Source of the DNA: Candidatus Thorarchaeota archaeon AB_25
GTDB lineage: Archaea; Asgardarchaeota; Thorarchaeia; Thorarchaeales; Thorarchaeaceae
DNA length: 64,000 nucleotides
Reading direction: 5' to 3'
NCBI GenBank assembly: GCA_001940705.1
Contig: MEHG01000001.1
Coordinates: 25,128-89,127, forward strand
A program made the position numbers and the translations under genes. The notes beneath the pieces were generated by a model. That model made no database searches. It was not told the origin of the DNA and worked only from the letters and a program-made list of their open reading frames with translations. This document shows positions 4,527 to 16,666 of this stretch, in pieces (position 1 is the first letter of the stretch; every line of letters starts with the position of its first letter).

Positions 4527-4974
4527 CAGTCCACGCCTCCTTTGTCAGGGATACAGCAACACCATTATTGCAGATCGCTCCCTCAGACTCGAGTGTGTCC
4601 ATGAACTTCATGGCACGACCTAGGTCTATTCCCGCCTCACTACATTCCCTCATCACATTCTCGATGGAAACTGCGCGGCCTCTGTTCATATCTATAAGTG
4701 ATTCAATGATATTGAACACTCGTCGTTTGATCCCAATTCCTCGACCATTTCCACCTTGTTTCACCTTGGAGATCTGCGACTCGATAACGAGCTCGCGGAC
4801 ACAGGACTGGGCTTCCTGGACTGTCACAGCATAGAGAGTGCCAGCCTCATGCAGGATGATTCCTTGGCAGAGGCTGCAGCGAGAGGCTTCATCTTCAGTT
4901 TCTACGTGGGAATAGCCAATATTCCTGCAGTGATTGCATCGGTATACTCTGAACATCCCTCGCATACGGTTCAC
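4519..4974 (-). CDS. Zn-ribbon (CxxC...CxxC) plus C-terminal winged-helix-like DNA-binding protein
   Basis: YRCNHCRN...x17...RCSLCQG gives four Cys in a ribbon spacing. The C-terminal RVFNIIESLIDMNRGRAVSIENVMRECSEAGIDLGRAMKFMDTLESEGAI looks like a wHTH. The GTG start shares nt 4974 with the RadA-like stop; alternative ATGs at 4965 and 4956. Confidence 0.55.
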   Translation of the reverse strand: MNRMRGMFRVYRCNHCRNIGYSHVETEDEASRCSLCQGIILHEAGTLYAVTVQEAQSCVRELVIESQISKVKQGGNGRGIGIKRRVFNIIESLIDMNRGRAVSIENVMRECSEAGIDLGRAMKFMDTLESEGAICNNGVAVSLTKEAWTDV

Positions 4975-6050
4975 TAACTCTCACCCACCACGGTCTCGGC
5001 CTCGACTACAATCTCTTCTTCAACCTCGGGAGTGTCCTCCTTCACCTCGAGACCCTCACCTTGTTTTTCGAAGTATTCCTTTATGTCAGGTTCAATCTCT
5101 TTCTTCGTCTTCGCGTCTGGATACATACCACCCCAACCAACGATGAGCTCTGCATCAAACTCAGGAAGTCCAGCGTTATCCTGCAACTCGATCTTTCGGA
5201 TATCGCCCTTGGTTCTTCGTGTGTAGAATCTGTAATCGCTAGCGTGTGATATGATATGGCCTCCCACTGGAGCATTCGGGTTTCCTCCATAGGTGGAGAT
5301 CTTAGCCATGACTTGGTTGGAATAAGCGAAAATGCAGTCGGTCGCTGTGGACGTTCGGCGCATCTGGTTGAGGAGGTTGTTCATGTCCTGTTGCCTGATT
5401 CTCATGTTTTCCAGACCTGTGTACTCTGCGCGGAAGAGACCTGTGAACGAGTCAATGACCACTAGTTTGTAATCTTGCTCGGCACACATCTGGGGTATTG
5501 TCTCAAAGATCTCTGTTATCTGGCCAGATAGGACGACCTCTGCACGACCGATGTTTCCAAGGGTCACGTCTGGATCTAGTCCGTGTCTAATTGCATTGGC
5601 CCTGATGGTACGTGGTTTGAAGCTGGACTCAGTGTCCAACCAGAGAACCCTTCCTTCGAGACCTCCCTTCTCAAGTGGGAGCTGAGCTGTCACGGCTAAT
5701 TGACTGACCCACTGAGTTTTTCCGCCTCTTGCTGGGCCGAAAAATTCTACTATGCTTCCGACCTCGATTCCGCCACGAAGGGCCTGATCGACCTTTGGGA
5801 TTCCAGTGGTGAGTCGGGGCTTAGTCGCCATCTCTTGCTCTATCTCGAGACCTGACCTGAACCCGAACTTACCCACGAGGAGCCGAGCGTTCTTGATGAC
5901 CTTCTCGCATGTACCTTCACCCATCTTAGTCTTCTTTAGTAATTCAACTGGGTTCTGGACAGCTAGAAGTTCAGCTGTTGTGACGTAAACTTCCCTCAGT
6001 TTCTTTGCGACTGCGGGACCAATACCCTGAACAGCCTCGAGTTCTGTCAT
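4974..6050 (-). CDS. radA: RadA/Rad51-type recombinase homolog, divergent, with an acidic C-terminal extension
   Basis: N-terminal HhH-like segment (VQGIGPAVAKKLRE). Walker A FFGPARGGKTQ, Walker B KLVVIDSF. Core similarity to archaeal RadA throughout (LWLDTESSFKPRTI, SNQVMAK..GGNPNAPVGGHIISHAS). About 45 extra C-terminal residues rich in E/V. Confidence 0.85.
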   Translation of the reverse strand: MTELEAVQGIGPAVAKKLREVYVTTAELLAVQNPVELLKKTKMGEGTCEKVIKNARLLVGKFGFRSGLEIEQEMATKPRLTTGIPKVDQALRGGIEVGSIVEFFGPARGGKTQWVSQLAVTAQLPLEKGGLEGRVLWLDTESSFKPRTIRANAIRHGLDPDVTLGNIGRAEVVLSGQITEIFETIPQMCAEQDYKLVVIDSFTGLFRAEYTGLENMRIRQQDMNNLLNQMRRTSTATDCIFAYSNQVMAKISTYGGNPNAPVGGHIISHASDYRFYTRRTKGDIRKIELQDNAGLPEFDAELIVGWGGMYPDAKTKKEIEPDIKEYFEKQGEGLEVKEDTPEVEEEIVVEAETVVGES

Positions 6051-6514
6051 GGAATCTCCTCCTCTTCAAGCCGCTTAGAAACTGGACCCTCCAATGGGAC
6101 CAGTCTGAGGAATGCTGGCAGGTCAAACATTGGGACGACGATCTCACCGTTAGACCGCAATAGTGTAAGACCATTTAGAAGTTGGATGACCTCTTCCTGT
6201 CGTGCTAGTGGTACTCGAAAGTACAGCCCTTCAGGGGTGACCTCACCAGTTATGCTGATATAGCCACCAAGAGCGTCATATGCGGACCCAACTAGACCGT
6301 CACCGTCTTGTGGGGCTGTTCCAGGATCTGCAGGTACAACATCTCCCACCAATCGAATCATCTGGAAGATGTCATCATAGAACTCTTCCCAGAGCCAACT
6401 GGGACTTCTGTTCTCTGCGACCCGTAATCCTGCTGCTGCACCCGCGAGCCACGCCACTTGGGGCATGGTGAAAGGTGCACGAGGAACACTTTGAATAAAA
6501 TCGTCTACTTGCAT
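6047..6514 (-). CDS. Hypothetical protein (155 aa)
   Basis: Track ORF. ATG abuts the upstream TAG (6514-6517) and there is an ATGA overlap with the RadA-like start (6047-6050). Confidence 0.55.
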   Translation of the reverse strand: MQVDDFIQSVPRAPFTMPQVAWLAGAAAGLRVAENRSPSWLWEEFYDDIFQMIRLVGDVVPADPGTAPQDGDGLVGSAYDALGGYISITGEVTPEGLYFRVPLARQEEVIQLLNGLTLLRSNGEIVVPMFDLPAFLRLVPLEGPVSKRLEEEEIP

Positions 6515-7267
6515 CTAAATTTCTACCTCCTCACCGATCTGTACTCCGCTAATGACCTCTGGTAGTGGTTGAAGATCCTCCAACCATTCCTTGAGGCCGC
6601 GTATCATGGGGTCTCTCAACTGGCCATTGCTAAGTACTGAAGCTAAGAGAGCCTTTGATGCTACCACAACTCTTTGCAGTGCCAACTCACGTTCTGAGAA
6701 TGTCATTGGACGGAACCATGGCATCGTCACAAATCCAGATTCTCCAGCAAGGTATTCTCGCCAGTCAATCTCCCAGTTCGCGACAAGGGGATCACGCCTA
6801 ACTATTCCAAGTAGGACATCGGTCCACTCAGTCCAACGCTTCATGAAGTTGCGAACCGACGCAGACAGAGCCTTCAGACTGCCACCCTTTCTCTCGGACA
6901 GTCCTTCAAAAACAAGAACCAGTCTGGTCGCGTCATCCTTGGCAATCGCACTGAGTGCAAGTCCAGTGTTGATGGATGTGGTCATGAGTGCTAGTCCAGG
7001 GACAATCCCTGGAATGTCGCAAGGGAGATACCTGCCTTTCCGCTCTGGTTCAAACTTTTGGAACGGAGAGAGGATATCACTCCTTAGTCCAACAATCATG
7101 ATCAGACTTGCATCTCTGTCTGGTCCGTGATATCGAAGCCGAGCTTTTAGGACAGTCCGGTCGGTGTTACTGAACATCACTTGAAGCGGCAGGGTGACGT
7201 CTATCATTCCCGTACCCTTCGCTTCTCTGTGAGCGGCCATCAGTTGATCTTCGAGTTGTGTTAGCAT
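6515..7267 (-). CDS. Hypothetical protein (250 aa), first gene of the operon
   Basis: Track ORF preceded by ~520 bp of non-coding DNA. No motif recognised. Confidence 0.55.
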   Translation of the reverse strand: MLTQLEDQLMAAHREAKGTGMIDVTLPLQVMFSNTDRTVLKARLRYHGPDRDASLIMIVGLRSDILSPFQKFEPERKGRYLPCDIPGIVPGLALMTTSINTGLALSAIAKDDATRLVLVFEGLSERKGGSLKALSASVRNFMKRWTEWTDVLLGIVRRDPLVANWEIDWREYLAGESGFVTMPWFRPMTFSERELALQRVVVASKALLASVLSNGQLRDPMIRGLKEWLEDLQPLPEVISGVQIGEEVEI

Positions 7268-7278
7268 ACCTTTGCACC

Positions 7279-7310
7279 GTACGTATGCAACGTATACGTA
7301 GACCTATACG
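7279..7310 (-). promoter_or_regulatory. Clustered CGTATA repeats and a 10-nt palindrome immediately upstream of the operon start (candidate operator/promoter element)
   Basis: GTACGTATGCAACGTATACGTAGACCTATACG. CGTAT(G/A) at 7282 and 7291, inverted TATACG at 7305, perfect palindrome ACGTATACGT at 7290-7299. Lies 12-43 nt upstream of the ATG at 7267. Confidence 0.25.
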
Positions 7311-7555
7311 AAAGTTGGGTCTATGATGAAGAAGGCATCATAACCCTTATTTTCCATAATGAAGGTCTATCAAAATTAGCGGTCAGATTATTGAATATCT
7401 TGAGCTAGAAAATCTCGTTTAGTCGACTCATTTCTATTATTCAGTATACCCTTAGGTCCTTTTCTGCAACAGAAGTAATAGACGAACAACAAAAATCGAA
7501 CACTAATACACGAAGTTCTGTGGGACTCACAAAGGATGGAGTACTAGCTGGGCTC

Positions 7556-7726
7556 GATTGCACATTTGACCCTTGATGATTGAAAGAAAATGTGGAGGAA
7601 GCCCTAAAAGGTCAAAGAAGCGTTATCCGCCCGTATAATCTCGACGCTGAGGTTATCTATATCCCCTAATTGTCCTACTCGACTCTTAGCTTGTAGGGTC
7701 ACTGGACAGAGAACACTTTGCTTTCC
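7556..7726 (+). promoter_or_regulatory. Conserved ~170-nt leader element, copy A, upstream of GH3 paralog 1
   Basis: Aligns without gaps to 11916-12085, roughly two thirds identical by hand count. Includes the identical 20-mer GATTGCACATTTGACCCTTG. Confidence 0.5.
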
Positions 7727-7790
7727 TTTTCCATGTTTATGCCATGGGATGCAGGAGTTGTATCCTGAATCCTAAGGAGGCAAAAGCAAG

Positions 7791-9332
7791 ATGTCAATTA
7801 TGAGAAAGCTTGTGTCTGTAGTGGCCAAGCGCAAGATGAAGGAGATCGAATATGTACTAGATCATCCGATTGAGGAATCAAACAAGTTACTAACAGACTT
7901 ACTCACTAAACATCAGGATTCAGTCTTAGGACGAAGGTATGGATTTGATTCCATCACATCTCCTGAGCAGTTTGCTGAGAGAGTTCCTCTTACAGACTAT
8001 AAGAAGATGAAACCTATCATTGATGAGGTGTACAAGAATCCTACTGGGAAGATAATGACTTCAGAACCAGTGATCTGGTATCTGACTACGTCAGGATCGA
8101 CTGGAAATCAGAAACAGATGCCGTTGACCAAGTCTGGATTAAAGACGGCCTCGGTCGGTGGTTCCCGAATGTGGATGGGGTATATGAATCAACATCCTGA
8201 CAACTCGAAGATACTCGATGGGACGATGATAATGTTCGGAGCGCCATCCAACACAGGCGAGATAAATGGAGTACCAACGGGGTATGGTTCGGGAGTGTAT
8301 GTGGGCAATCAGAACAGGATCTTCAAACGACTCATCAAACCAGGTGAGGATGTATTTTGTATTGAGGACATGGAGGAGAAGATGAAGGCCTACGCTCTGT
8401 GCACAGCAACGAACGATGTGACAGCATTACAGGGCATAGCAACCCTAAACCTTGCGTTCATGCGTAGAATGGAGGAACAGTATGGTCCTTGGCTCCTTGA
8501 ACAGCTAAAAGGAACAAAGCATGAACGAAAAATCCGTGAATCGCTGGACTCTGATGGACGGCTCGATGTAGCAAAGTTTTGGCCCAATCTCAGACTATTC
8601 GTGAGTGGAGGAATCGATGTAGACCCATACAGAAAGTGGGTAAAAACTGCGTTACCAAATTCAACTGTCTGGGAAGGCTATGCCGCCTCAGAGGGATATC
8701 TTGGAAGTCAGATTCTCCCCGAAAATGGTCTTCAACTAATGCCGGACTTGAATTATCTAGAGTTCATTCACGAGCGCGAGATTGAAAGTGAAACCCCCAG
8801 GGTAATTCCGCTCTCAGATGTGAAGAAAGGATCACGTTACGAGCTTGTGATGTCCAATCATAATGGTTGGTACCGATACAGATTGGGTGATATGGTGACT
8901 TTCACAAGAACAGATCCATACACAATCAGGCATATCTCTCGCAAAGGAGGGATAGTAAGTCTGGCTGGTGAAAAACTGAGTGATGCACATGTGATCAATG
9001 CGATGTCTGAAGCAAGTAAGGTGACCGGAGCACAGGTCATGGATTACTCTGTAGTAGGGGTTGCTGAGGGAAACATTCCTTACTATGTTATCGCAGCATT
9101 GTTCAATGACGATGTGGACTCTCGGGAATTCGTTGATGCCTTTGAGGAAGCAATTGGAGAAGTGAATTGGGAATTCATCAACAGTCAGGGAATGGGGGCT
9201 CTTGGTCCAACTATTCTACGAAAGATGGTAAAATCCAGACATGACGAGGTCGTGAAGGAAACCCACCTTCAAGCTAAACCAGTTCCTTTGACAGTGGATA
9301 AGGCTGTCTTTGAGGTCTGTGAGGCGACATAG
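7791..9332 (+). CDS. GH3-family acyl-acid amido synthetase-like adenylating enzyme (paralog 1)
   Basis: 513 aa. The TTSGSTGNQKQMPLT motif corresponds to the GH3 SSGTSxGxxKxxP nucleotide-binding motif. Overall length and C-terminal layout fit GH3. AAGGAGG lies 9 nt upstream of the ATG. Confidence 0.8.
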   Translation: MSIMRKLVSVVAKRKMKEIEYVLDHPIEESNKLLTDLLTKHQDSVLGRRYGFDSITSPEQFAERVPLTDYKKMKPIIDEVYKNPTGKIMTSEPVIWYLTTSGSTGNQKQMPLTKSGLKTASVGGSRMWMGYMNQHPDNSKILDGTMIMFGAPSNTGEINGVPTGYGSGVYVGNQNRIFKRLIKPGEDVFCIEDMEEKMKAYALCTATNDVTALQGIATLNLAFMRRMEEQYGPWLLEQLKGTKHERKIRESLDSDGRLDVAKFWPNLRLFVSGGIDVDPYRKWVKTALPNSTVWEGYAASEGYLGSQILPENGLQLMPDLNYLEFIHEREIESETPRVIPLSDVKKGSRYELVMSNHNGWYRYRLGDMVTFTRTDPYTIRHISRKGGIVSLAGEKLSDAHVINAMSEASKVTGAQVMDYSVVGVAEGNIPYYVIAALFNDDVDSREFVDAFEEAIGEVNWEFINSQGMGALGPTILRKMVKSRHDEVVKETHLQAKPVPLTVDKAVFEVCEAT

Positions 9333-9342
9333 ATTGGATTCC

Positions 9343-10230
9343 ATGAATGAAACCCAAACTGCTCATTCTGTACAACATGCAAGGGTGGTGGGCAATCACT
9401 ACCAATGCATGACTGACAGAAACATTGGAATGATTAATGCTGATGAGCAGAACAGAATCGCAAACACAGTGATAGCTCAGGCAGGTGTCGGTGGCAACGC
9501 AGACATTGTCATAACTCTCGCACAGATGGGGTTTCAGCACTTCAGGTTAGCTGATCCTGATATCTATGAACTCTCGAATCTGAACCGTCAGCTAGGTGCT
9601 AGAGTTTCGACATTGGAACGAAACAAGGCCCGAGTGGTTACAGAAGACGTGCTGGAAATCAATCCAGAAGCCGAAATCAAAGTGTATCCCGATGGCATCA
9701 CCTGGGACAATGTTGAGGAGTTCGTGGATGGAGCAGATGTCATAATCGATGGACTCGATTTGTCAGTCATGCATCTCAGAAAGAGAATGTTTGATCTGGC
9801 TAGGGTTCGCGGCATACCTGTCATCACATGTCCTGTCATTGGATGGGGTGCAGGTATTGCTATCTTCGATCCAGAAAGGAGCCCCTCGTTTGGAGACTTC
9901 TTTGGAAAGATTCCTCAAGATCAGAAATCAGACGAGTGGCGGAGGTTCATCAGCAACTATGCTCTTCACTTCATCTCATCCAGACCAACAGGGATTGATG
10001 TCACCCTCGGTATGAAACGGACGTTGGAAGGAAGACCCCCTGCAGTTGCTGCACCTTGCAGACTGAATGCCGCTCTAGTACCAACCGCAATCTTTGGCTA
10101 TCTGTTTGACAAGGGAAATCTCCCCTTAGTACCAACCACACTCTACGTGGATATCCTTGGCGGAAAGATTTCTAGCACTGGACCAAAGAAGCGATGGTTT
10201 GTCAAGAAAGCCATTGATGTTTTGTCCTGA
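9343..10230 (+). CDS. ThiF/MoeB/HesA (E1-like) adenylyltransferase family protein
   Basis: Rossmann motif AQAGVGGNAD, arginine-finger motif ELSNLNRQ, DGLD. No CxxC zinc motifs. The track ORF begins at the TTG at 9310, inside the GH3 gene; I prefer the ATG at 9343, 10 nt after the GH3 stop. Confidence 0.8.
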   Translation: MNETQTAHSVQHARVVGNHYQCMTDRNIGMINADEQNRIANTVIAQAGVGGNADIVITLAQMGFQHFRLADPDIYELSNLNRQLGARVSTLERNKARVVTEDVLEINPEAEIKVYPDGITWDNVEEFVDGADVIIDGLDLSVMHLRKRMFDLARVRGIPVITCPVIGWGAGIAIFDPERSPSFGDFFGKIPQDQKSDEWRRFISNYALHFISSRPTGIDVTLGMKRTLEGRPPAVAAPCRLNAALVPTAIFGYLFDKGNLPLVPTTLYVDILGGKISSTGPKKRWFVKKAIDVLS

Positions 10231-10243
10231 GATAGTACAGCGA

Positions 10244-11185
10244 TCATGGTGTTTCTTGGACTCTGAAGCGAAGTTGAGCACGCCTTCGCTGAAGCCATCC
10301 ATCTAGGTCATCAACAAGGTACTTAGAGAAGATGATTATCGAAGTTGCATAAAGTATTACTACTAGAAGCAGGGCGATTGCCATTTGAATAGGGGGATTA
10401 CCAAGCAGGACATCCGGCCCAGCTATCACCTCTGAAGTCGATATCTTGATGTTTTCATTCAGGAAGTTGATCAACCAATGTGCGATTATCGGTCCTAGCA
10501 GTGTTCGTCTACTACTGAACTTCTCATAGTAGATACCGAATACTCCACCCAAGAGACCTGAGAATACAACATACACGAAAATGTGGGATGTGCTTAGAGT
10601 TCCAGTCCCTGCGAAGTAGAAGGGCCAGACGAGATGGTAGAGGCCGAAGATCGCTGCAGAGATTAGGATTGCTCGATTGACTGAAACATATTCTCGCAAT
10701 CCGTTCTGAAGAGCTCCTCGAAACAAGATCTCCTCATAGACCGCATTGATTAGAAAAAAGATTGCACTATACCATAATAGGTCCGGTCGGATTATGGTTA
10801 CACTTAGATCTCGAGAAGAGTCAATGAATGCCCAGTAGATAACCGAGGCAATAGCATTACCCATTAGGAACAACGCAACACCCAGAATGATTCCGAGTGT
10901 CACGTGCCTTCTTGTGTCTTCAATCTTCAATCCTAGAACGGAGGTTATCTGATTTCTTCGAAAGAACCAGAAGAATCCAAGAATAATGAGAAGTGGAAAG
11001 AGCTTACTGGGAAGGATGTTAAGCCACGACTCACTGAGGCCTAGGAGGAAAACATCGACATTCCTCCATACCACACCAATGAACAGGAACAGCCCTGCCA
11101 GAGCGAGCAGTGGAACATGGTCCCAAGTTTGTTTACTTGGTTCTTCGATCTCAGTCGTACTGACACTCAGCTGTTTCTTTCCCAT
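10244..11185 (-). CDS. CPBP (CAAX/Abi) family intramembrane metalloprotease
   Basis: Motifs YEEILFRGAL, FGLYHL and AHWLINF in a polytopic membrane protein. The track ORF (to 11560) overlaps the upstream gene out of frame, so I trimmed it to the ATG at 11185, 2 nt after the upstream TAG. Confidence 0.8.
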   Translation of the reverse strand: MGKKQLSVSTTEIEEPSKQTWDHVPLLALAGLFLFIGVVWRNVDVFLLGLSESWLNILPSKLFPLLIILGFFWFFRRNQITSVLGLKIEDTRRHVTLGIILGVALFLMGNAIASVIYWAFIDSSRDLSVTIIRPDLLWYSAIFFLINAVYEEILFRGALQNGLREYVSVNRAILISAAIFGLYHLVWPFYFAGTGTLSTSHIFVYVVFSGLLGGVFGIYYEKFSSRRTLLGPIIAHWLINFLNENIKISTSEVIAGPDVLLGNPPIQMAIALLLVVILYATSIIIFSKYLVDDLDGWLQRRRAQLRFRVQETP

Positions 11186-11187
11186 GA

Positions 11188-11853
11188 CTACAGGACACTC
11201 CTTGCTTCTACCTTGTACCATGGGTTTACGAGCGCCAATGTTGCCATTGCAGTAGATATTGCAGTAATCATTGCTGGAACAGAAGCCAAACCAATTGCCA
11301 TGAATGCAACAAGCCCTGCTTGTCCAACAAATGAGAACGCAGATGAGACAACCATCAGATCGCTGCGAACTTCTTTCAGACGTCCAGTCTTCCAGGTAAT
11401 AGCAAACGTGAGTACCATTCCACCCATGAAGAAGATGATGATGGGTAGATGAAGGAGCATGATAAGCTCCTGTGTCGGACCAAGAAGCAAAATACTCACC
11501 CAATAGACGATAACCAATCCAATGATTCGGAGATGGTGCTTTCTGATTCTGGGCAACCATATGTGGAGTAGAACGCCAACAAGGGGGACAGCTATTCCTC
11601 CAACAATGAGTGCTCTCATACGAAACACTTCAAGGGTCATTTCCAAGTATCCATACTCTGAAAGTAGGACCATGGTCTGATTAATTGCATGAGCAATGAA
11701 CACAATTCCAAACATCAGTGGTAGATCTGTCATGAGTCTGTTTTCTTGACGATACCAAATTATGATCAAATAGACCGCCATGATTGCTGCGAGTACAGAG
11801 GCGGCAAGACCAGGTAATAGTGTGAGGTCAAATACAAATTGCAATATGAACAC
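11188..11853 (-). CDS. Hypothetical polytopic membrane protein (221 aa, about 7 TM segments)
   Basis: Track ORF, hydrophobic throughout, directly upstream of the CPBP gene. Confidence 0.6.
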   Translation of the reverse strand: MFILQFVFDLTLLPGLAASVLAAIMAVYLIIIWYRQENRLMTDLPLMFGIVFIAHAINQTMVLLSEYGYLEMTLEVFRMRALIVGGIAVPLVGVLLHIWLPRIRKHHLRIIGLVIVYWVSILLLGPTQELIMLLHLPIIIFFMGGMVLTFAITWKTGRLKEVRSDLMVVSSAFSFVGQAGLVAFMAIGLASVPAMITAISTAMATLALVNPWYKVEARSVL

Positions 11854-11915
11854 CTATTGTTTAATTTTCCATAACATCATCATTGCGACACAATTTAAGG
11901 CCAGAGAAGAGCTAG

Positions 11916-12085
11916 GATTGCACATTTGACCCTTGCAGAACAGAACAAAAAGTGGAAAGGCCTCTAGGTTTCCAAATAAACAATATGGGCCCTCATAATC
12001 CAAGCGCTAACGTTATCGAACCTTCATCACTGTTCTACTCGATTCATAGTTGGCAGGATTGTTGTACAGAGGACACTTAGTTTCC
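11916..12085 (+). promoter_or_regulatory. Conserved ~170-nt leader element, copy B, upstream of GH3 paralog 2
   Basis: Same 20-mer GATTGCACATTTGACCCTTG and the same order and spacing of conserved blocks as 7556-7726. Confidence 0.5.
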
Positions 12086-12210
12086 ATTGTCTACACCTAA
12101 TGTATACGGTTTCGGGAGAGTTCTCCTGAGACTGGGAGGCAAGACTAGATGTCGAATCGAGAAAACGAAACATTTCGCATTGAAGAATCACAGGGAGGGG
12201 TGGTTCTCTG

Positions 12211-13749
12211 ATGGGAGTGATAAGCAAGCTCATTCCACTGTTGGCAAAGAGGAAGGCAAAGACGATTGCCGAGATCCTGAACAATCCAATCAGTCTGACT
12301 GAGGGCAAACTCATGTCGATACTTGAAACTCATAGTCAAACCAGGTTTGGAAAGGACAATAGCTATGCCAACATCCGGACACCTGAGCAATTTAGTGAAA
12401 CAGTCCCACTTCATGATTATCATTCAATGAAGCCCTATTGGGACCAGATTCATGTGAATCCTGAACAACCAATCATCACAGCAGACCCTGTGATATGGTA
12501 TGTCCAGAGTAGTGGATCTACTGGAAAACCGAAAGCCCTACCTCTAAGTGCGGCTGGTCTGAGCGACTACACTGGAGGGAGCATGTTGTTCCTCATGTCA
12601 TTCATCAATGCCAAGAAGGGAAACAACAAGATCTTCGATGGAACGATGCTCACCTTTGCTGCACCTGCAAAGATGGGTGAGATCAATGGAGTACCCCTCG
12701 GGTACATGACTGGAATCTCTCGTGAGATGATCGCCAACGCATTGCTCAAGAAGCTCATCAAACCGGGAGAGGATATCTTCAACATGACAAAGATGGGCGA
12801 GAAGCTCTGGGCATATGCAAAATATGCGGTCACAGAGAACATCACCTCTCTGGGTGGTATCACCACTCTCATCTTCGCATTCATTCGCCGTATGCAGAAT
12901 GAGTACGGACCCAGTCTGCTTGAGGAGTTCAAAGGCACAAAGCATGAGGCTAGGATCAGGGAGGCACTCAACGATGAAGGGACCCTTGACCTGAATGTCC
13001 TCTGGCCCAACCTGATAATGGTCGGTGCCACTGGTGTTGATGCGGATCCTTACAAGCCGTGGTTGAAAAGCACACTTCCGAAAGCGACTCTCTGGGATAA
13101 CTACGCTGGTTCTGAGGGTCTCTATGGAACTACACTCTTGAAGAACACAGACAATGGTATCCAGCTGTTACCACACATCAACTACTTGGAATTTATCCCT
13201 GAGTCTGACATCGAGAAGGAGGACCCAACAGCTATCCCCCTAGTAGATGTAAAGAAAGGCCAAAGGTACGAGTTGGTCCTCACTAACCTGATGGGCTACA
13301 CCCGATACAGGATTGGTGATGTGATGACTTTCAAGGACACAGACCCATATTCTGTATACAGGATTGGACGCAAGGGTAAGTCTGTCAACCTGACAGGTGA
13401 GAAGCTGTCAGACGCCCATGTCACAGAGGGTGTTGCTTATGCAACCAAGCAGACAGGAGCGGAGATACTGGACTACAACGTCTATGGAACAATTGGAGAT
13501 GGTCAGGCAAACTATATCATAGCAGCCATGTTCAACAACGATGTGAATCCAGTAGAGTTCGCACAAGCATTTGATGAGTGCGTCGGGAAAAACAACGGTG
13601 AGTTCAAGTATGTCCAGGAGTTTGGATCACTGGGACCCACCATCGTGAAGAAGGTAACCAAGTCTCACACCGAGAGCATCATCGAACGAACTCACATCCA
13701 GGCAAAGGCTGAACCTTTGACTGCCGAAGTTATTGAAGGAAGTGCATAG
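12211..13749 (+). CDS. GH3-family acyl-acid amido synthetase-like adenylating enzyme (paralog 2)
   Basis: 512 aa. QSSGSTGKPKALPLS motif. About half of the residues are identical to paralog 1 by eye. GGGAGGGGTG lies upstream of the ATG. Confidence 0.8.
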   Translation: MGVISKLIPLLAKRKAKTIAEILNNPISLTEGKLMSILETHSQTRFGKDNSYANIRTPEQFSETVPLHDYHSMKPYWDQIHVNPEQPIITADPVIWYVQSSGSTGKPKALPLSAAGLSDYTGGSMLFLMSFINAKKGNNKIFDGTMLTFAAPAKMGEINGVPLGYMTGISREMIANALLKKLIKPGEDIFNMTKMGEKLWAYAKYAVTENITSLGGITTLIFAFIRRMQNEYGPSLLEEFKGTKHEARIREALNDEGTLDLNVLWPNLIMVGATGVDADPYKPWLKSTLPKATLWDNYAGSEGLYGTTLLKNTDNGIQLLPHINYLEFIPESDIEKEDPTAIPLVDVKKGQRYELVLTNLMGYTRYRIGDVMTFKDTDPYSVYRIGRKGKSVNLTGEKLSDAHVTEGVAYATKQTGAEILDYNVYGTIGDGQANYIIAAMFNNDVNPVEFAQAFDECVGKNNGEFKYVQEFGSLGPTIVKKVTKSHTESIIERTHIQAKAEPLTAEVIEGSA

Positions 13750-13751
13750 CA

Positions 13752-14117
13752 GTGGCAAGTAAATATCAACTTAGACTACTTGCAGGAGGATTACTCATCA
13801 TATCCGCATGTACTCACACCATTCAGGTGTTTGTCTACGGAGGCGTGTGGCACAATATTGGTGCAGCAGTCTATGGTGCAATGTACCTCTTTTTTGGTAT
13901 CGGGCTAATCCGGTATCTCGACAAGAGGGGTCTCGTGGCACTATGCGTGATCCTACCCCTGATTGGGGGTGTTGGAGGAGTGATTAGATTCCTCTTCTTA
14001 CACACACATGTTGCCAACTACTTCATCATACTCCATGTATTGATAGACATAGTAGTAGTCCCGGTTTCCATCTACATGTATCGGAATATTGGGACTAGTG
14101 TAGCAACCACCATGTAA
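13752..14117 (+). CDS. Small hypothetical membrane protein (121 aa, about 4 TM)
   Basis: GTG start 2 nt after the GH3 stop with GAAGGAAG upstream. Hydrophobic throughout. Confidence 0.5.
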   Translation: MASKYQLRLLAGGLLIISACTHTIQVFVYGGVWHNIGAAVYGAMYLFFGIGLIRYLDKRGLVALCVILPLIGGVGGVIRFLFLHTHVANYFIILHVLIDIVVVPVSIYMYRNIGTSVATTM

Positions 14118-14125
14118 CATGGAAA

Positions 14126-14178
14126 GGAGGAGTACTTCGCTCCAGTTATTTGGAGCCAAATCCTCCACTATTGTTTTT
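14126..14178 (+). terminator. Nested hairpin followed by a T-run
   Basis: GGAGGA (14126-31) pairs with TCCTCC (14161-66). The inner pair is GCTCCA (14139-44) with TGGAGC (14151-56). TTGTTTTT follows. Confidence 0.4.
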
Positions 14179-14312
14179 CCTCAATAGTCCACAGCAACTT
14201 CCCCTAGATTATTCCAGATTGATTGATTTAAGCAACCCAAGAGACAATATCTGACGAGATGATTCAAATACCACCCTTCCCACTGTACATCTGATTGGGT
14301 GGTGAGAAGTGC

Positions 14313-15392
14313 ATGGTTCGGATCGCTCATATCTCTGACTCGCATCTGGGGAGTTCGCTCTTCCAATTATCAGAGAGAAGAGAAGATGCACGTAAGTGCC
14401 TCAAGAAAGCAGTAGACATGGCTATGCAACATTCACCAGATATATTGGTACATACTGGTGACCTGTTTCACTCTCCCTTACCCCAGAATGAGGACATGAT
14501 ATTCGTTATTGAGTTGTTCAAGAGTCTGAAAGATAAGGTGCGACTCATCGTCCTTGATGGAAATCACGATTTGCCTTACAACTACAGATATGCCTACAGT
14601 CCGCTTCGAGGTCTCGAAACAATGGAGCTCATTGTTTCAACCGGGTCTGAACCCTACAAGACCTTCACCGAGTCTTTCGACGGTAAGAAAGTGGAGATAC
14701 ATCTTGTTTCGTGGACTACTAGTCACCAGCTTGAACATTTTCTGAATTCAGCAAAACCAGTAGAGAAGAACGCCTTGTTCTTTGCACACGACATTCATAT
14801 TCCGAAAGAGAACCTACCTGTCTACTTTCAATATTATGGCTGCGGACACAAGCACAATTTCTGGCTCGATGAGGAATATGACATTGGGAGACCTGGATCC
14901 ACTTGTATTGTGAATTGGCATCGTGAAATGGGAGGCAGAAAAAAGCTCATTGTAGTGGATATTGACAACTCTGACAAAAATGAGTATACATTGCAGACTC
15001 TGAATGATGTGAGAGAGTTCAAATTCGTCACAGGTCTGGATATCACAGGAATGGGAGCAGCAGAAGTTAACACCATGCTCAAGAGCTCTCTCGGAAAGCT
15101 CTCACCAAAGAAGAAGAAACCGATTATCATCGTGCAGGTCAATGGGCTAATCGATAATGAGACCGAGCGAGGGATTGAACGAGCTAATCTATTAGAGTAC
15201 GGAGAGAAGAAGCTCGACCCACTCTTCCTTCACATTGAGCCAAACTGGTCATCGGTTGGAGCTAGGCCAATTGAGCTCTCAGAACCACTTGACGTAGAGA
15301 CCTCGATTCTAGAGTACATGGAGCAGACAAAGGATAAGCGTGCAGCACAAGTGAAGATGATGATGCCAAGGTTCTTTGGAGGTGCAGATTAG
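14313..15392 (+). CDS. Mre11/SbcD-type calcineurin-like nuclease
   Basis: MVRIAHISDSHLG, GDLFH, DGNHD and GCGHKH motifs. The track start (TTG at 14295) is probably too early; the ATG at 14313 gives the canonical N-terminus. Confidence 0.8.
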   Translation: MVRIAHISDSHLGSSLFQLSERREDARKCLKKAVDMAMQHSPDILVHTGDLFHSPLPQNEDMIFVIELFKSLKDKVRLIVLDGNHDLPYNYRYAYSPLRGLETMELIVSTGSEPYKTFTESFDGKKVEIHLVSWTTSHQLEHFLNSAKPVEKNALFFAHDIHIPKENLPVYFQYYGCGHKHNFWLDEEYDIGRPGSTCIVNWHREMGGRKKLIVVDIDNSDKNEYTLQTLNDVREFKFVTGLDITGMGAAEVNTMLKSSLGKLSPKKKKPIIIVQVNGLIDNETERGIERANLLEYGEKKLDPLFLHIEPNWSSVGARPIELSEPLDVETSILEYMEQTKDKRAAQVKMMMPRFFGGAD

Positions 15393-16666
15393 TGATCAGA
15401 CGAATTGGCCTCCAAAACTTCAAGGTCTACAAAAACCAGGAATTCACTCTAGAAGATGGCTCCACCGCAATTGTTGGACCAAATGGGTCCGGGAAGACAT
15501 CAATCCTTGAAGCGATTGAATTTGGTTTCTTCAGAATGGTCACTCGAAAGGAGAAGAAAGTGCCACAAGTTGAAGATCTCATTCATCATAAAGGAAAACG
15601 TGCCATCGTTGAACTCGAGTTCGTTGCTCCGATAAACCGCCGTAACTACTTTGTGAAGAGAACAATCCATCCTGGGGAAACGAATGCCGAATTGTTCTTG
15701 GTTGGAAACAAGGACCCCGAGGAAACGGGAGTCACGCGAGTTGACAATAAGATTGTAGAGTTAATTGGATTGAATCGCCACGCCTTTTCAGCCTTAACTT
15801 ACGTTCGGCAGGGAGAGATAGACAGACTGTCAAGACTCGCTCCTAAAAGCAGAAGAGCTGACCTGTACTCAATGATGGGTCTTGGAATCTATGATAAGCA
15901 GAGCTCAAAGGTACAGAAAGAAATCCGTCAGATGGACAAGGACTCCCAGAACATCTCGGAATCAATCAAGAGGTTAAAACAAGTTCAAGACCACCTTCCA
16001 GAAAAGAAAGAAATTGATGCTGCGCTGAAAGCCTTGGATTCTATTGAGGAGTCCATCATAAAGAAGCAGATACAAGAAGTGATACAGAAGGTCAGTGATT
16101 CAGTAATCGCGGTGGAAGAACAGCTAGCATCTCCCGAACTGTCTACTAAACCAGAGGAACTGAAAGAAGAGACCGAAATTGCAAAGCATCTCAAGGTTCT
16201 CCTCAACACCATTCCTGATGTAGCAGAGAATCAACTGCGACCCCATATCAGACGTGAGGCAAGAATGATTTTCCGTGAGATATTTGGAGACCGGTATAGT
16301 GACTTGGTAATTGACGATGACTATGAAATTGCTCTCTATGATTTGAAAGGCAATCGAGTCTCACTCATGGCAGCTTCCGGCGGCGAGGACGTATGCGTGA
16401 ACTTTGCTTTGCGTGTTGCAGTGAATACGGCTCTTCAAAGGCATTCGACCACAGGTCCTCCACCAGGATTGATAATCTTGGACGAGCCCGGGGCGGGCCT
16501 TGATGCACAGCGCAGACGATGGTTACCTGAAGCGATTACAAAACTCGATGTCGTCAACCAGGTTCTCGTAGTCACACACATGGAGGAACTAAAAGGGTCC
16601 ACAGACCATGTCATCTCGCTGATTCCGCAGGGTAAGGGAAGACAGCCGATTGTTGAGGTTGACTAA
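15392..16666 (+). CDS. Short Rad50/SbcC-like ABC-type ATPase (424 aa) with a short coiled-coil insert and no zinc hook
   Basis: Walker A GPNGSGKT, Q-loop VRQGE, signature ASGGE, Walker B LIILDEP, H-loop VVTH. The GTG start overlaps the Mre11-like TAG by 1 nt. The whole protein has a single Cys. Confidence 0.75.
   Translation: MIRRIGLQNFKVYKNQEFTLEDGSTAIVGPNGSGKTSILEAIEFGFFRMVTRKEKKVPQVEDLIHHKGKRAIVELEFVAPINRRNYFVKRTIHPGETNAELFLVGNKDPEETGVTRVDNKIVELIGLNRHAFSALTYVRQGEIDRLSRLAPKSRRADLYSMMGLGIYDKQSSKVQKEIRQMDKDSQNISESIKRLKQVQDHLPEKKEIDAALKALDSIEESIIKKQIQEVIQKVSDSVIAVEEQLASPELSTKPEELKEETEIAKHLKVLLNTIPDVAENQLRPHIRREARMIFREIFGDRYSDLVIDDDYEIALYDLKGNRVSLMAASGGEDVCVNFALRVAVNTALQRHSTTGPPPGLIILDEPGAGLDAQRRRWLPEAITKLDVVNQVLVVTHMEELKGSTDHVISLIPQGKGRQPIVEVD

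Follow-up and report, generated by a model that had tools for sequence, protein, structure and literature searches.

What would two paralogous GH3-family enzymes and a ThiF/E1-like adenylyltransferase make, side by side, in an Asgard archaeon? This question is raised by six clustered genes in a 64,000-nucleotide stretch of DNA from Candidatus Thorarchaeota archaeon AB_25 (GenBank assembly GCA_001940705.1, contig MEHG01000001.1, positions 25,128 to 89,127), which we refer to in its full length as the window. All six genes were confirmed with the coordinates and spacings first given for them. The cluster encodes a first GH3 protein (GH3a), the ThiF-like protein, a CPBP intramembrane protease, a protein with seven transmembrane segments (7-TM), a second GH3 protein (GH3b) and a small protein with four such segments (4-TM). 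An initial annotation of the sequence had taken these genes for a cassette that activates carboxylates and conjugates them through amide bonds, acting on a small molecule or on the C-terminus of a peptide or protein. The general idea holds and our analysis favours the small-molecule option, while the peptide or protein option loses ground given the lineage of the ThiF-like enzyme and the lack of a nearby gene for a precursor or for a protein ending in Gly-Gly. We propose, giving the proposal an even chance of being right, that GH3a and the ThiF-like enzyme form a two-step small-molecule pathway in which an acyl-amino acid would be made and its carboxylate then activated.

The first of these steps concerns the GH3 proteins. 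GH3a and GH3b share 48% identity, and both matched the Pfam GH3 N-terminal domain (E = 6e-36 and 124.5 bits for GH3a; E = 2e-28 and 100 bits for GH3b) and the central domain (61.6 bits for GH3a and 61.5 bits for GH3b; cutoff 23.6), with the C-terminal domain falling slightly under its cutoff (21.6 and 18.7 bits). The nucleotide-binding motifs, defined as (S/T)SG(S/T)TxGxxK, Y(A/G)xSEG and YRxGD, read TSGSTGNQK, YAASEG and YRLGD in GH3a and SSGSTGKPK, YAGSEG and YRIGD in GH3b, and their positions were invariant in 12 homologues. Their relatives among solved structures in the PDB are plant GH3 amido synthetases (E values of about 1e-17 to 1e-20). The top NCBIfam model for both was OlsH (NF052613), at 137.7 and 126.7 bits against an equivalog cutoff of 620 bits; by sequence, the window proteins are relatives of OlsH and not its orthologues.

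OlsH of Singulisphaera acidiphila, published in the Journal of Biological Chemistry in 2025, is an ATP-dependent N-acyl-ornithine synthetase that uses a free fatty acid, ornithine, ATP and Mg, and its authors proposed that other bacterial GH3s produce other N-acyl amino acids (PMC12493201). The statement of the initial annotation that prokaryotic GH3 proteins are functionally uncharacterised is thus outdated, and OlsH offers a concrete precedent for a prokaryotic GH3 that converts a fatty acid, an amino acid and ATP into an N-acyl amino acid. Along these lines, GH3a is predicted to form an N-acyl (or other acyl) amino acid. The operon partner of OlsH is OlsI, an alpha/beta-hydrolase O-acyltransferase. 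General family scans found no alpha/beta-hydrolase among the GH3, ThiF, 4-TM, 7-TM and CPBP proteins; these scans included no search aimed at OlsI, and the other recurrent ORFs, such as U10, U18 and U22 (ORF, open reading frame), lay outside them.

The second step is that of the ThiF-like protein, which matched Pfam ThiF (E = 3e-30) and whose AlphaFold2 model (mean predicted local distance difference test, pLDDT, 88.8) has an E1 fold, with AclA of Tenacibaculum discolor (9egb, chain d) as the closest solved structure, followed by PaaA, ThiF and MoeB. Its best NCBIfam models were PRK08223 (192 bits, below the trusted cutoff), PRK14851 (155 bits) and PRK14852 (111 bits). Canonical ThiF (83 bits), MoeB (63), UbaA (50) and TcdA (46) scored lower, and the E1 models for ubiquitin-like or sulfur-carrier proteins (MoeB, ThiF, UbaA) gave 34-83 bits against cutoffs of 152-450. 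The SNLNRQ motif noted in the initial annotation is there, as is the absence of a CxxC zinc site, since the protein has only three isolated cysteines; the strict GxGGxG motif is not, the Gly-rich loop being GVGGNA.

The protein aligns over its full length with a clade of bacterial ThiFs, which are its nearest homologues beyond Thorarchaeota (30-38% identity across about 90% of the length). In the alignment of Thorarchaeota and bacterial sequences R82 (the Arg of SNLNRQ), Q83 and K95 were invariant and D136 nearly so; Asp136 is the equivalent of D217 in TrzS, where the adenylation-motif Asp is essential (PMC12856293). By sequence, the ThiF-like enzyme is best placed in the lineage of the ThiF-type cyclases of N-acyl amino acids and is probably not an activator of ubiquitin-like proteins; our prediction is that it adenylates the GH3a product on its alpha-carboxylate. 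One ThiF (P0167, locus L140), with 38-39% identity to the window protein, stands between the Thorarchaeota and bacterial clades; its gene follows those for Mrp-type antiporter subunits.

The assignment to this lineage draws on the gene neighbourhoods of the bacterial homologues. Five of them (P0170, P0172, P0175, P0176 and P0178) pass the PRK08223 cutoff, bacterial cassette members scoring 320-448 bits, and all five are encoded directly after a FeeM gene (PF21926); a nitroreductase-like gene lies downstream of ThiF in three of the five loci and a MacB-type exporter in two. We then used bacterial ThiF sequences, and these only, to scan metagenome contigs, which gave 80 loci, a sample in which Thorarchaeota-type loci cannot show. 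FeeM was present in 45 of the 56 loci with enough upstream sequence to be informative and a flavin oxidase in 34 of 52 informative loci, fused to ThiF in 10; neither GH3 nor CPBP was found in any of the 80. The same parts appear as fusions in PRK14851 (ThiF and oxidase) and PRK14852 (FeeM-like, ThiF and oxidase), whose oxidase parts match the Rv1355c and Acg families.

This FeeM-ThiF-oxidase cassette is the published oxazolone pathway, known as OxzA/OxzB in Pseudoalteromonas rubra (bioRxiv 10.1101/2020.06.11.147165), as TyzA/TyzB/TyzC (PMC10404671), as TrzA/TrzS, that is Rv1356c/Rv1355c, in Mycobacterium tuberculosis (PMC12856293) and as the NasY-ThiF-nitroreductase clusters of producers of stieleriacines and related compounds in Stieleria, Thalassotalea and Massilia (PMC12479983). 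In these pathways an acyltransferase makes an N-acyl amino acid, a ThiF homologue converts it with ATP into an oxazolone, and a flavin oxidase desaturates the product with O2 (PMC10404671, PMC12856293). ATP-dependent cyclisation of N-acyl amino acids has been described for TyzB, OxzB and TrzS (PMC10404671, PMC12856293, PMC12596934, bioRxiv 10.1101/2020.06.11.147165), and in TrzS it precedes desaturation, the saturated cyclised intermediate accumulating under limiting O2 (PMC12856293). From the identical cassette architecture in three of these studies (PMC10404671, PMC12479983, PMC12856293) we infer that PRK08223 includes TyzB. Many of the bacterial cassettes (L043-L052, L053-L132) are preceded by an unusually long gene of about 500 codons resembling sigma-70/extracytoplasmic function factors and one for a small YgaP-like transmembrane protein, and are followed by a gene for a protein of about 90 amino acids and a MacB-type ATP-binding cassette exporter, neighbours which suggest that the oxazolone or N-acyl product is exported under regulation.

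In archaea, the corresponding ThiF is tied to GH3. We scanned one genome per species and obtained 42 loci, all from Asgard archaea and mostly labelled Thorarchaeota, which were annotated by BLAST with the window proteins as reference. Wherever a Thorarchaeota-type ThiF gene occurred, in the window and in 9 of the 42 loci, it lay immediately downstream of a GH3 gene on the same strand (10/10), and a further locus with different flanks and a 0-nt gap between the two genes (L139) brought the count to 11/11. Identity among the ThiF-linked GH3s drops to about 50% across loci, and in a neighbour-joining tree they are scattered through the GH3a-like part; genes of the GH3b type never carry ThiF. Since the ThiF-linked GH3s interleave with those from ThiF-less loci, the tree suggests an old GH3-ThiF pairing followed by repeated loss of ThiF. 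The co-occurrence of GH3, ThiF-like and CPBP genes that the initial annotation had offered as a check was thus borne out in part: GH3 accompanies ThiF in every case, ThiF accompanies GH3 in about a quarter of GH3 loci, and the CPBP/7-TM genes also occur without GH3 within 5 kb.

We therefore arrive at a candidate mechanism, because two unrelated makers of N-acyl amino acids (FeeM and, as predicted, GH3) precede the same ThiF lineage, and because the GH3 product would keep free the alpha-carboxylate that this lineage activates. As inferred from its family, GH3a would acylate an amino acid on its alpha-amino group, giving an N-acyl amino acid with a free alpha-carboxylate. Clade membership and conserved adjacency suggest that the ThiF-like enzyme would adenylate this carboxylate, and attack by the amide oxygen would then close a 5(4H)-oxazolone. 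The product should be a saturated, reactive oxazolone or its adduct with another nucleophile, and not the desaturated, tyrazolone-type bacterial end product, because a flavin oxidase partner is missing and the sediment habitat is presumably anoxic. GH3 would have taken the place of the FeeM/NAS acyltransferase, an unrelated enzyme, that serves the bacterial OxzAB, TyzABC and TrzAS pathways; tblastn found no homologue of the FeeM synthase in the window or the 42 Thorarchaeota loci. GH3b and the 4-TM protein would form a second, membrane-associated amido-synthetase module, possibly co-regulated with GH3a through a conserved upstream block, and 7-TM and CPBP a separate membrane module which, as their neighbourhood suggests, may handle, hydrolyse or sense a lipid product.

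Several observations weigh against this mechanism. The flavin oxidase typical of most bacterial members is absent, as no match to two cassette oxidases was found by tblastn (E <= 0.01) in the window or the 42 Thorarchaeota loci, so that the final product may be something other than an oxazolone. The ThiF-like protein reaches 192 bits against a trusted cutoff of 266 for PRK08223, and its Gly-rich loop is one residue shorter than that of the bacterial clade. Most Thorarchaeota GH3 loci are without ThiF, so that some GH3 function must be independent of it, and the 6-kb contig that carries the intermediate ThiF P0167 holds neither GH3 nor FeeM. In addition, we know of no archaeal GH3 for which an enzyme activity or a product has been shown so far. 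Fatty-acid-based (acyloxyacyl) amino lipids have also been reported as absent from archaea (PMC12493201).

The cluster lies in a conserved setting (Table 1). Near-identical DNA was found in marine sediment metagenomes, and contigs from two sediment metatranscriptomes, which match parts of GH3a, ThiF, CPBP, 7-TM and GH3b at 99% identity or more, support expression of this region; these runs were chosen for sharing window sequence, and DNA carry-over is possible. The CPBP gene is convergent with the ThiF-like gene, their stop codons being 13 nt apart. In most of the 42 related loci a GH3 gene stands at this place in the chromosome, embedded in a long conserved gene order that runs from RadA-hyp155-hyp250 through the GH3 island to Mre11-Rad50. 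We considered a DNA-repair link to RadA and Mre11-Rad50 and dropped it, as their adjacency is part of this much longer gene order. Neither hyp155 nor hyp250 had a match in Pfam, NCBIfam, PADLOC or the PDB. The divergent hyp250/GH3 pair is kept in loci where RadA or Mre11-Rad50 has moved (L017, L021, L028, L032), and in nine loci (L022, L023, L027, L028, L030, L032, L039-L041) the GH3b island is followed by tandem paralogues of transcription factor B (TFB) in place of Mre11-Rad50.

Table 1. Features of the GH3 island and its flanks (positions in the window; enzyme functions are predictions)
Feature	Position	Strand	Description
RadA	4974-6050	-	Tight operon with hyp155 and hyp250
hyp155	6047-6514	-	Conserved protein
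hyp250	6515-7267	-	Conserved protein
Conserved non-coding block	7540-7740	+	Upstream of GH3a; homologous copy at 11900-12100 upstream of GH3b
GH3a	7791-9332	+	513 aa; predicted GH3-family adenylating acyl-acid amido synthetase
ThiF-like	9343-10230	+	295 aa; starts 10 nt past the GH3a stop; ThiF/E1-like adenylyltransferase of the PRK08223 lineage
CPBP	10244-11185	-	313 aa from Met at 11185; Rce1-like intramembrane glutamic protease
7-TM gene	11188-11853	-	221 aa; separated from the CPBP start by 2 nt; first gene of the 7-TM/CPBP operon
Upstream ORF MSNRENETFRIEESQGGVVL	12149-12211	+	20 codons; own GGAGG site; stop overlaps the GH3b ATG
GH3b	12211-13749	+	512 aa; paralogous GH3 amido synthetase (predicted), in an operon with the 4-TM gene
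4-TM gene	13752-14117	+	121 aa; 2 nt past the GH3b stop; small membrane protein
Mre11-like	14295-15392	+	Directly downstream of the island
Rad50-like	15392-16666	+	Stop/start overlap with Mre11-like; only 424 aa, short for Rad50

This setting raises the possibility, to which we give somewhat less than an even chance, that nothing beyond GH3a-ThiF is a shared pathway: the six-gene cluster would be inherited Thorarchaeia synteny, with CPBP and 7-TM as unrelated neighbours and perhaps 4-TM as well. CPBP belongs to Pfam PF02517 (Rce1-like, E = 3e-17) and has intact catalytic motifs (EEILFR, FGLYH and HWLIN, for EExxxR, FxxxH and HxxxN), with its best curated subfamily models at 24-48 bits against cutoffs of 75-435. 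The 7-TM protein had no Pfam match; every one of its 243 homologues with a named source is labelled Thorarchaeota or Hodarchaeota. Its AlphaFold2 model (pLDDT 81) shows seven helices, in line with the topology first assigned to it, and the top 50 Foldseek matches were mostly G-protein-coupled receptors (GPCRs) and the adiponectin receptor, the best at E = 0.017 (range 0.02-0.2, TM-scores 0.4-0.6) and none at E <= 0.001, so that these similarities are not significant. A loop of this protein, T153-WKTGRLKEVRS-D165, is very conserved.

A CPBP gene adjoins the 7-TM gene in about 18 loci, and their order varies: 7-TM precedes CPBP in the window and in L001 and follows it in most of the rest. Because the pair also occurs without GH3 within 5 kb (L134-L138), it is an autonomous module, and the membrane coupling through CPBP that was part of the first description of the cluster is not established. 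These GH3-free loci sit beside genes for ferredoxin, PPDK and acetyl-CoA synthetase. They speak for simple inheritance of the gene order, together with its length in most loci, the GH3 loci that are without 7-TM, CPBP or both, and the absence of CPBP from the bacterial ThiF loci. In the other direction, GH3, 7-TM and CPBP stay together despite changed flanks in L014, in L023, L027, L030, L039 and L041 next to the TFB pair, and in L133 from Hodarchaeota. Functional coupling of 7-TM/CPBP to GH3 is thus possible but unproven, a grading that we keep this low because the whole region is embedded in the long conserved gene order.

The 4-TM gene also speaks against mere inheritance. Its protein has about four hydrophobic segments (a crude scan gave five overlapping peaks, two of them merging), and in 8 other loci its homologues directly follow genes of the GH3b type and no others, at 2-6 nt in most. 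GH3b forms a separate clade in the neighbour-joining tree, and GH3b and 4-TM are a stable gene pair. U18, a 4-TM protein encoded upstream of GH3b in other loci, was considered as a relative of the window protein and rejected, the two being unrelated.

A different alternative, which we regard as rather unlikely, retains the two enzymes of the proposed pathway and changes their substrate: GH3a would join an aromatic or short acid (phenylacetate, benzoate- or indole-type) to an amino acid, and ThiF would activate the conjugate for further ligation and not for oxazolone formation, serving detoxification, storage or signalling. Plant GH3s do take aryl and jasmonoyl acids, TrzA/TrzS take short C3-C5 acyl chains, some homologues carry the Joint Genome Institute label 'phenylacetate-CoA ligase-like', and archaeal membranes are isoprenoid-based, with acyloxyacyl amino lipids reported absent (PMC12493201). 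Nevertheless, the sole characterised prokaryotic GH3, OlsH, takes fatty acids, small multi-TM proteins (4-TM, U18, 7-TM) are encoded next to the GH3 genes and point to a membrane-soluble product, and no second ligase or acceptor gene is conserved beside ThiF.

The non-coding DNA upstream of the two GH3 genes bears both on their regulation and on the search for a peptide substrate. The two copies of the conserved block align without gaps over 176 nt at 69% identity and share an identical 20-mer, GATTGCACATTTGACCCTTG, at 7556-7575 and 11916-11935 (2 observed, 0 expected by chance); the block upstream of GH3 also aligns gap-free with L002, L024 and L035. An RNA element was considered and dropped, since RNAalifold gave a consensus of only -7.9 kcal/mol with little covariation, and an Rfam scan of 7200-14400 at E <= 1 returned nothing relevant. 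Because there is no Rfam match and only this weak fold, the block probably acts as a promoter or operator common to both paralogues, through which they would be co-regulated.

Between the second copy and GH3b lies a short upstream ORF (uORF), MSNRENETFRIEESQGGVVL, whose stop overlaps the GH3b start in the sequence TGATG. It was recovered in 11 other loci of the GH3b type, with 20-28 codons in 9 of them and 40 codons in L014 and L016; the lengths differ by whole codons, with the stop/start overlap retained throughout. The same ribosome-binding site stands directly before the GH3 start in basal GH3b loci. The uORF resembles a translated leader that couples translation, which would be unusual for an archaeon.

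This uORF is one of the features that would fit a tagging system, an improbable explanation in our view, in which the ThiF-like enzyme activates the C-terminus of a ubiquitin-like or ThiS-like carrier, or of the precursor of a ribosomally synthesised and post-translationally modified peptide, with GH3 as ligase and CPBP as protease. The E1 fold of the ThiF-like model agrees with such a system, and so does the presence of a CPBP protein, since CPBP proteases process peptides. Many ThiF-like enzymes work on peptides too (PMC12596934, PMC12250964). Nevertheless, a candidate substrate is missing: none of the ORFs of 25-130 aa that lie up to 18 kb from the cluster ends in Gly-Gly, which agrees with the initial annotation that no ubiquitin-like or precursor-peptide gene is visible, and the whole window holds just two such ORFs, both implausible, at 33 kb and 38.7 kb. 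A search for small ORFs in the three intergenic regions found, next to GH3a-ThiF, none conserved past the closest relatives of the window, and the uORF itself belongs to GH3b, which never occurs with ThiF, its GG codons coinciding with the GH3b ribosome-binding site. The ThiF-like protein, for its part, lacks both a CxxC zinc site and a conserved catalytic Cys, and the models for MoeB, ThiF, UbaA and Ube1 score 2-8 times lower than PRK08223. To our knowledge, GH3 enzymes act only on small molecules.

An anti-virus defence island, built on the E1-like enzyme and an Abi/CPBP-type membrane protein, is very improbable: the weak Rossmann-region matches to E1-E2 models of the CBASS type and to the 6A-MBL cap2 model, and the variable gene content between conserved flanks, would suit it, yet PADLOC returned generic E1 matches of 13-28 bits for ThiF and none for the other five proteins, GH3 holds its position in practically all related genomes like a core gene, and no E2, JAB or effector domain is present.

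If the two-step GH3a-ThiF pathway is correct, it would be the first predicted pathway of an N-acyl-amino-acid or oxazolone type in archaea, since the literature consulted describes ThiF-type oxazolone formation in bacteria alone and states that archaea lack such amino lipids (PMC12493201, PMC12596934). It would also be a clear non-homologous displacement, with an ATP-dependent GH3 in place of the FeeM acyltransferase before the same ThiF lineage, and would lend weight to the view that many GH3s of prokaryotes function as N-acyl-amino-acid synthetases. It would further give a testable function to the GH3 gene found at a shared position in most of the 42 Asgard loci, point to unrecognised lipid or signal chemistry in Asgard archaea, and provide an oxidase-free ThiF cyclase that is potentially useful as a biocatalyst for saturated azlactones. 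A bolder version, which we consider a long shot, is that Asgard GH3s make acyl-amino-acid lipids or signals, possibly oxazolones, that are received or processed by the 7-TM protein, with its GPCR-like topology, and the CPBP module. This would amount to an archaeal system for lipid-amide signalling or membrane modification in those prokaryotes that are nearest to eukaryotes. Such a system would matter for the question of where eukaryotic GH3s (plant hormone conjugation, animal GHDC) came from and would overturn the stated absence of N-acyl amino lipids from archaea.

Comparison with known systems sets these proteins apart in different degrees. CPBP shares its three catalytic motifs and polytopic form with the CPBP/Abi (Rce1-like) proteases, including the Mrt-type sorting proteases, but fits no curated subfamily and is always paired with the Asgard-specific 7-TM protein. 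The plant GH3s (JAR1, GH3.5/6/8/12) have the same fold family, motifs and two-step chemistry of adenylation followed by amide formation, whereas the window proteins are about 100 residues shorter, of low identity to them, and encoded in operons with either a ThiF-like or a 4-TM gene, an arrangement not known in plants. OlsH is likewise a prokaryotic GH3 with the three nucleotide-binding motifs, although the window GH3s reach only 127-138 of the 620 bits set as its cutoff. TcdA (the tRNA ct6A dehydratase) and MccB/PaaA are E1-like enzymes in which carboxylate adenylation drives intramolecular cyclisation and there is no thioester transfer; their substrates, however, are tRNA or peptides, and the ThiF-like protein scores far lower against them (46 bits for TcdA, E = 4e-5 for PaaA).

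From OxzAB, TyzABC and TrzAS the window cassette differs in its upstream enzyme, which is a GH3 (ANL-type, ATP-dependent, using a free acid) and not an acyl-coenzyme A/acyl carrier protein transferase of the FeeM/GNAT type, in having no flavin-dependent oxidase fused or nearby, in a ThiF that forms a divergent branch under the family cutoff with an altered Gly-rich loop, and in its host, a sediment archaeon. What it would share with these pathways is their core: a ThiF of the same lineage encoded just downstream of an enzyme that forms N-acyl amino acids, as predicted for GH3a, and the expected step in which the acyl-amino acid is activated at its alpha-carboxylate with ATP and cyclised.

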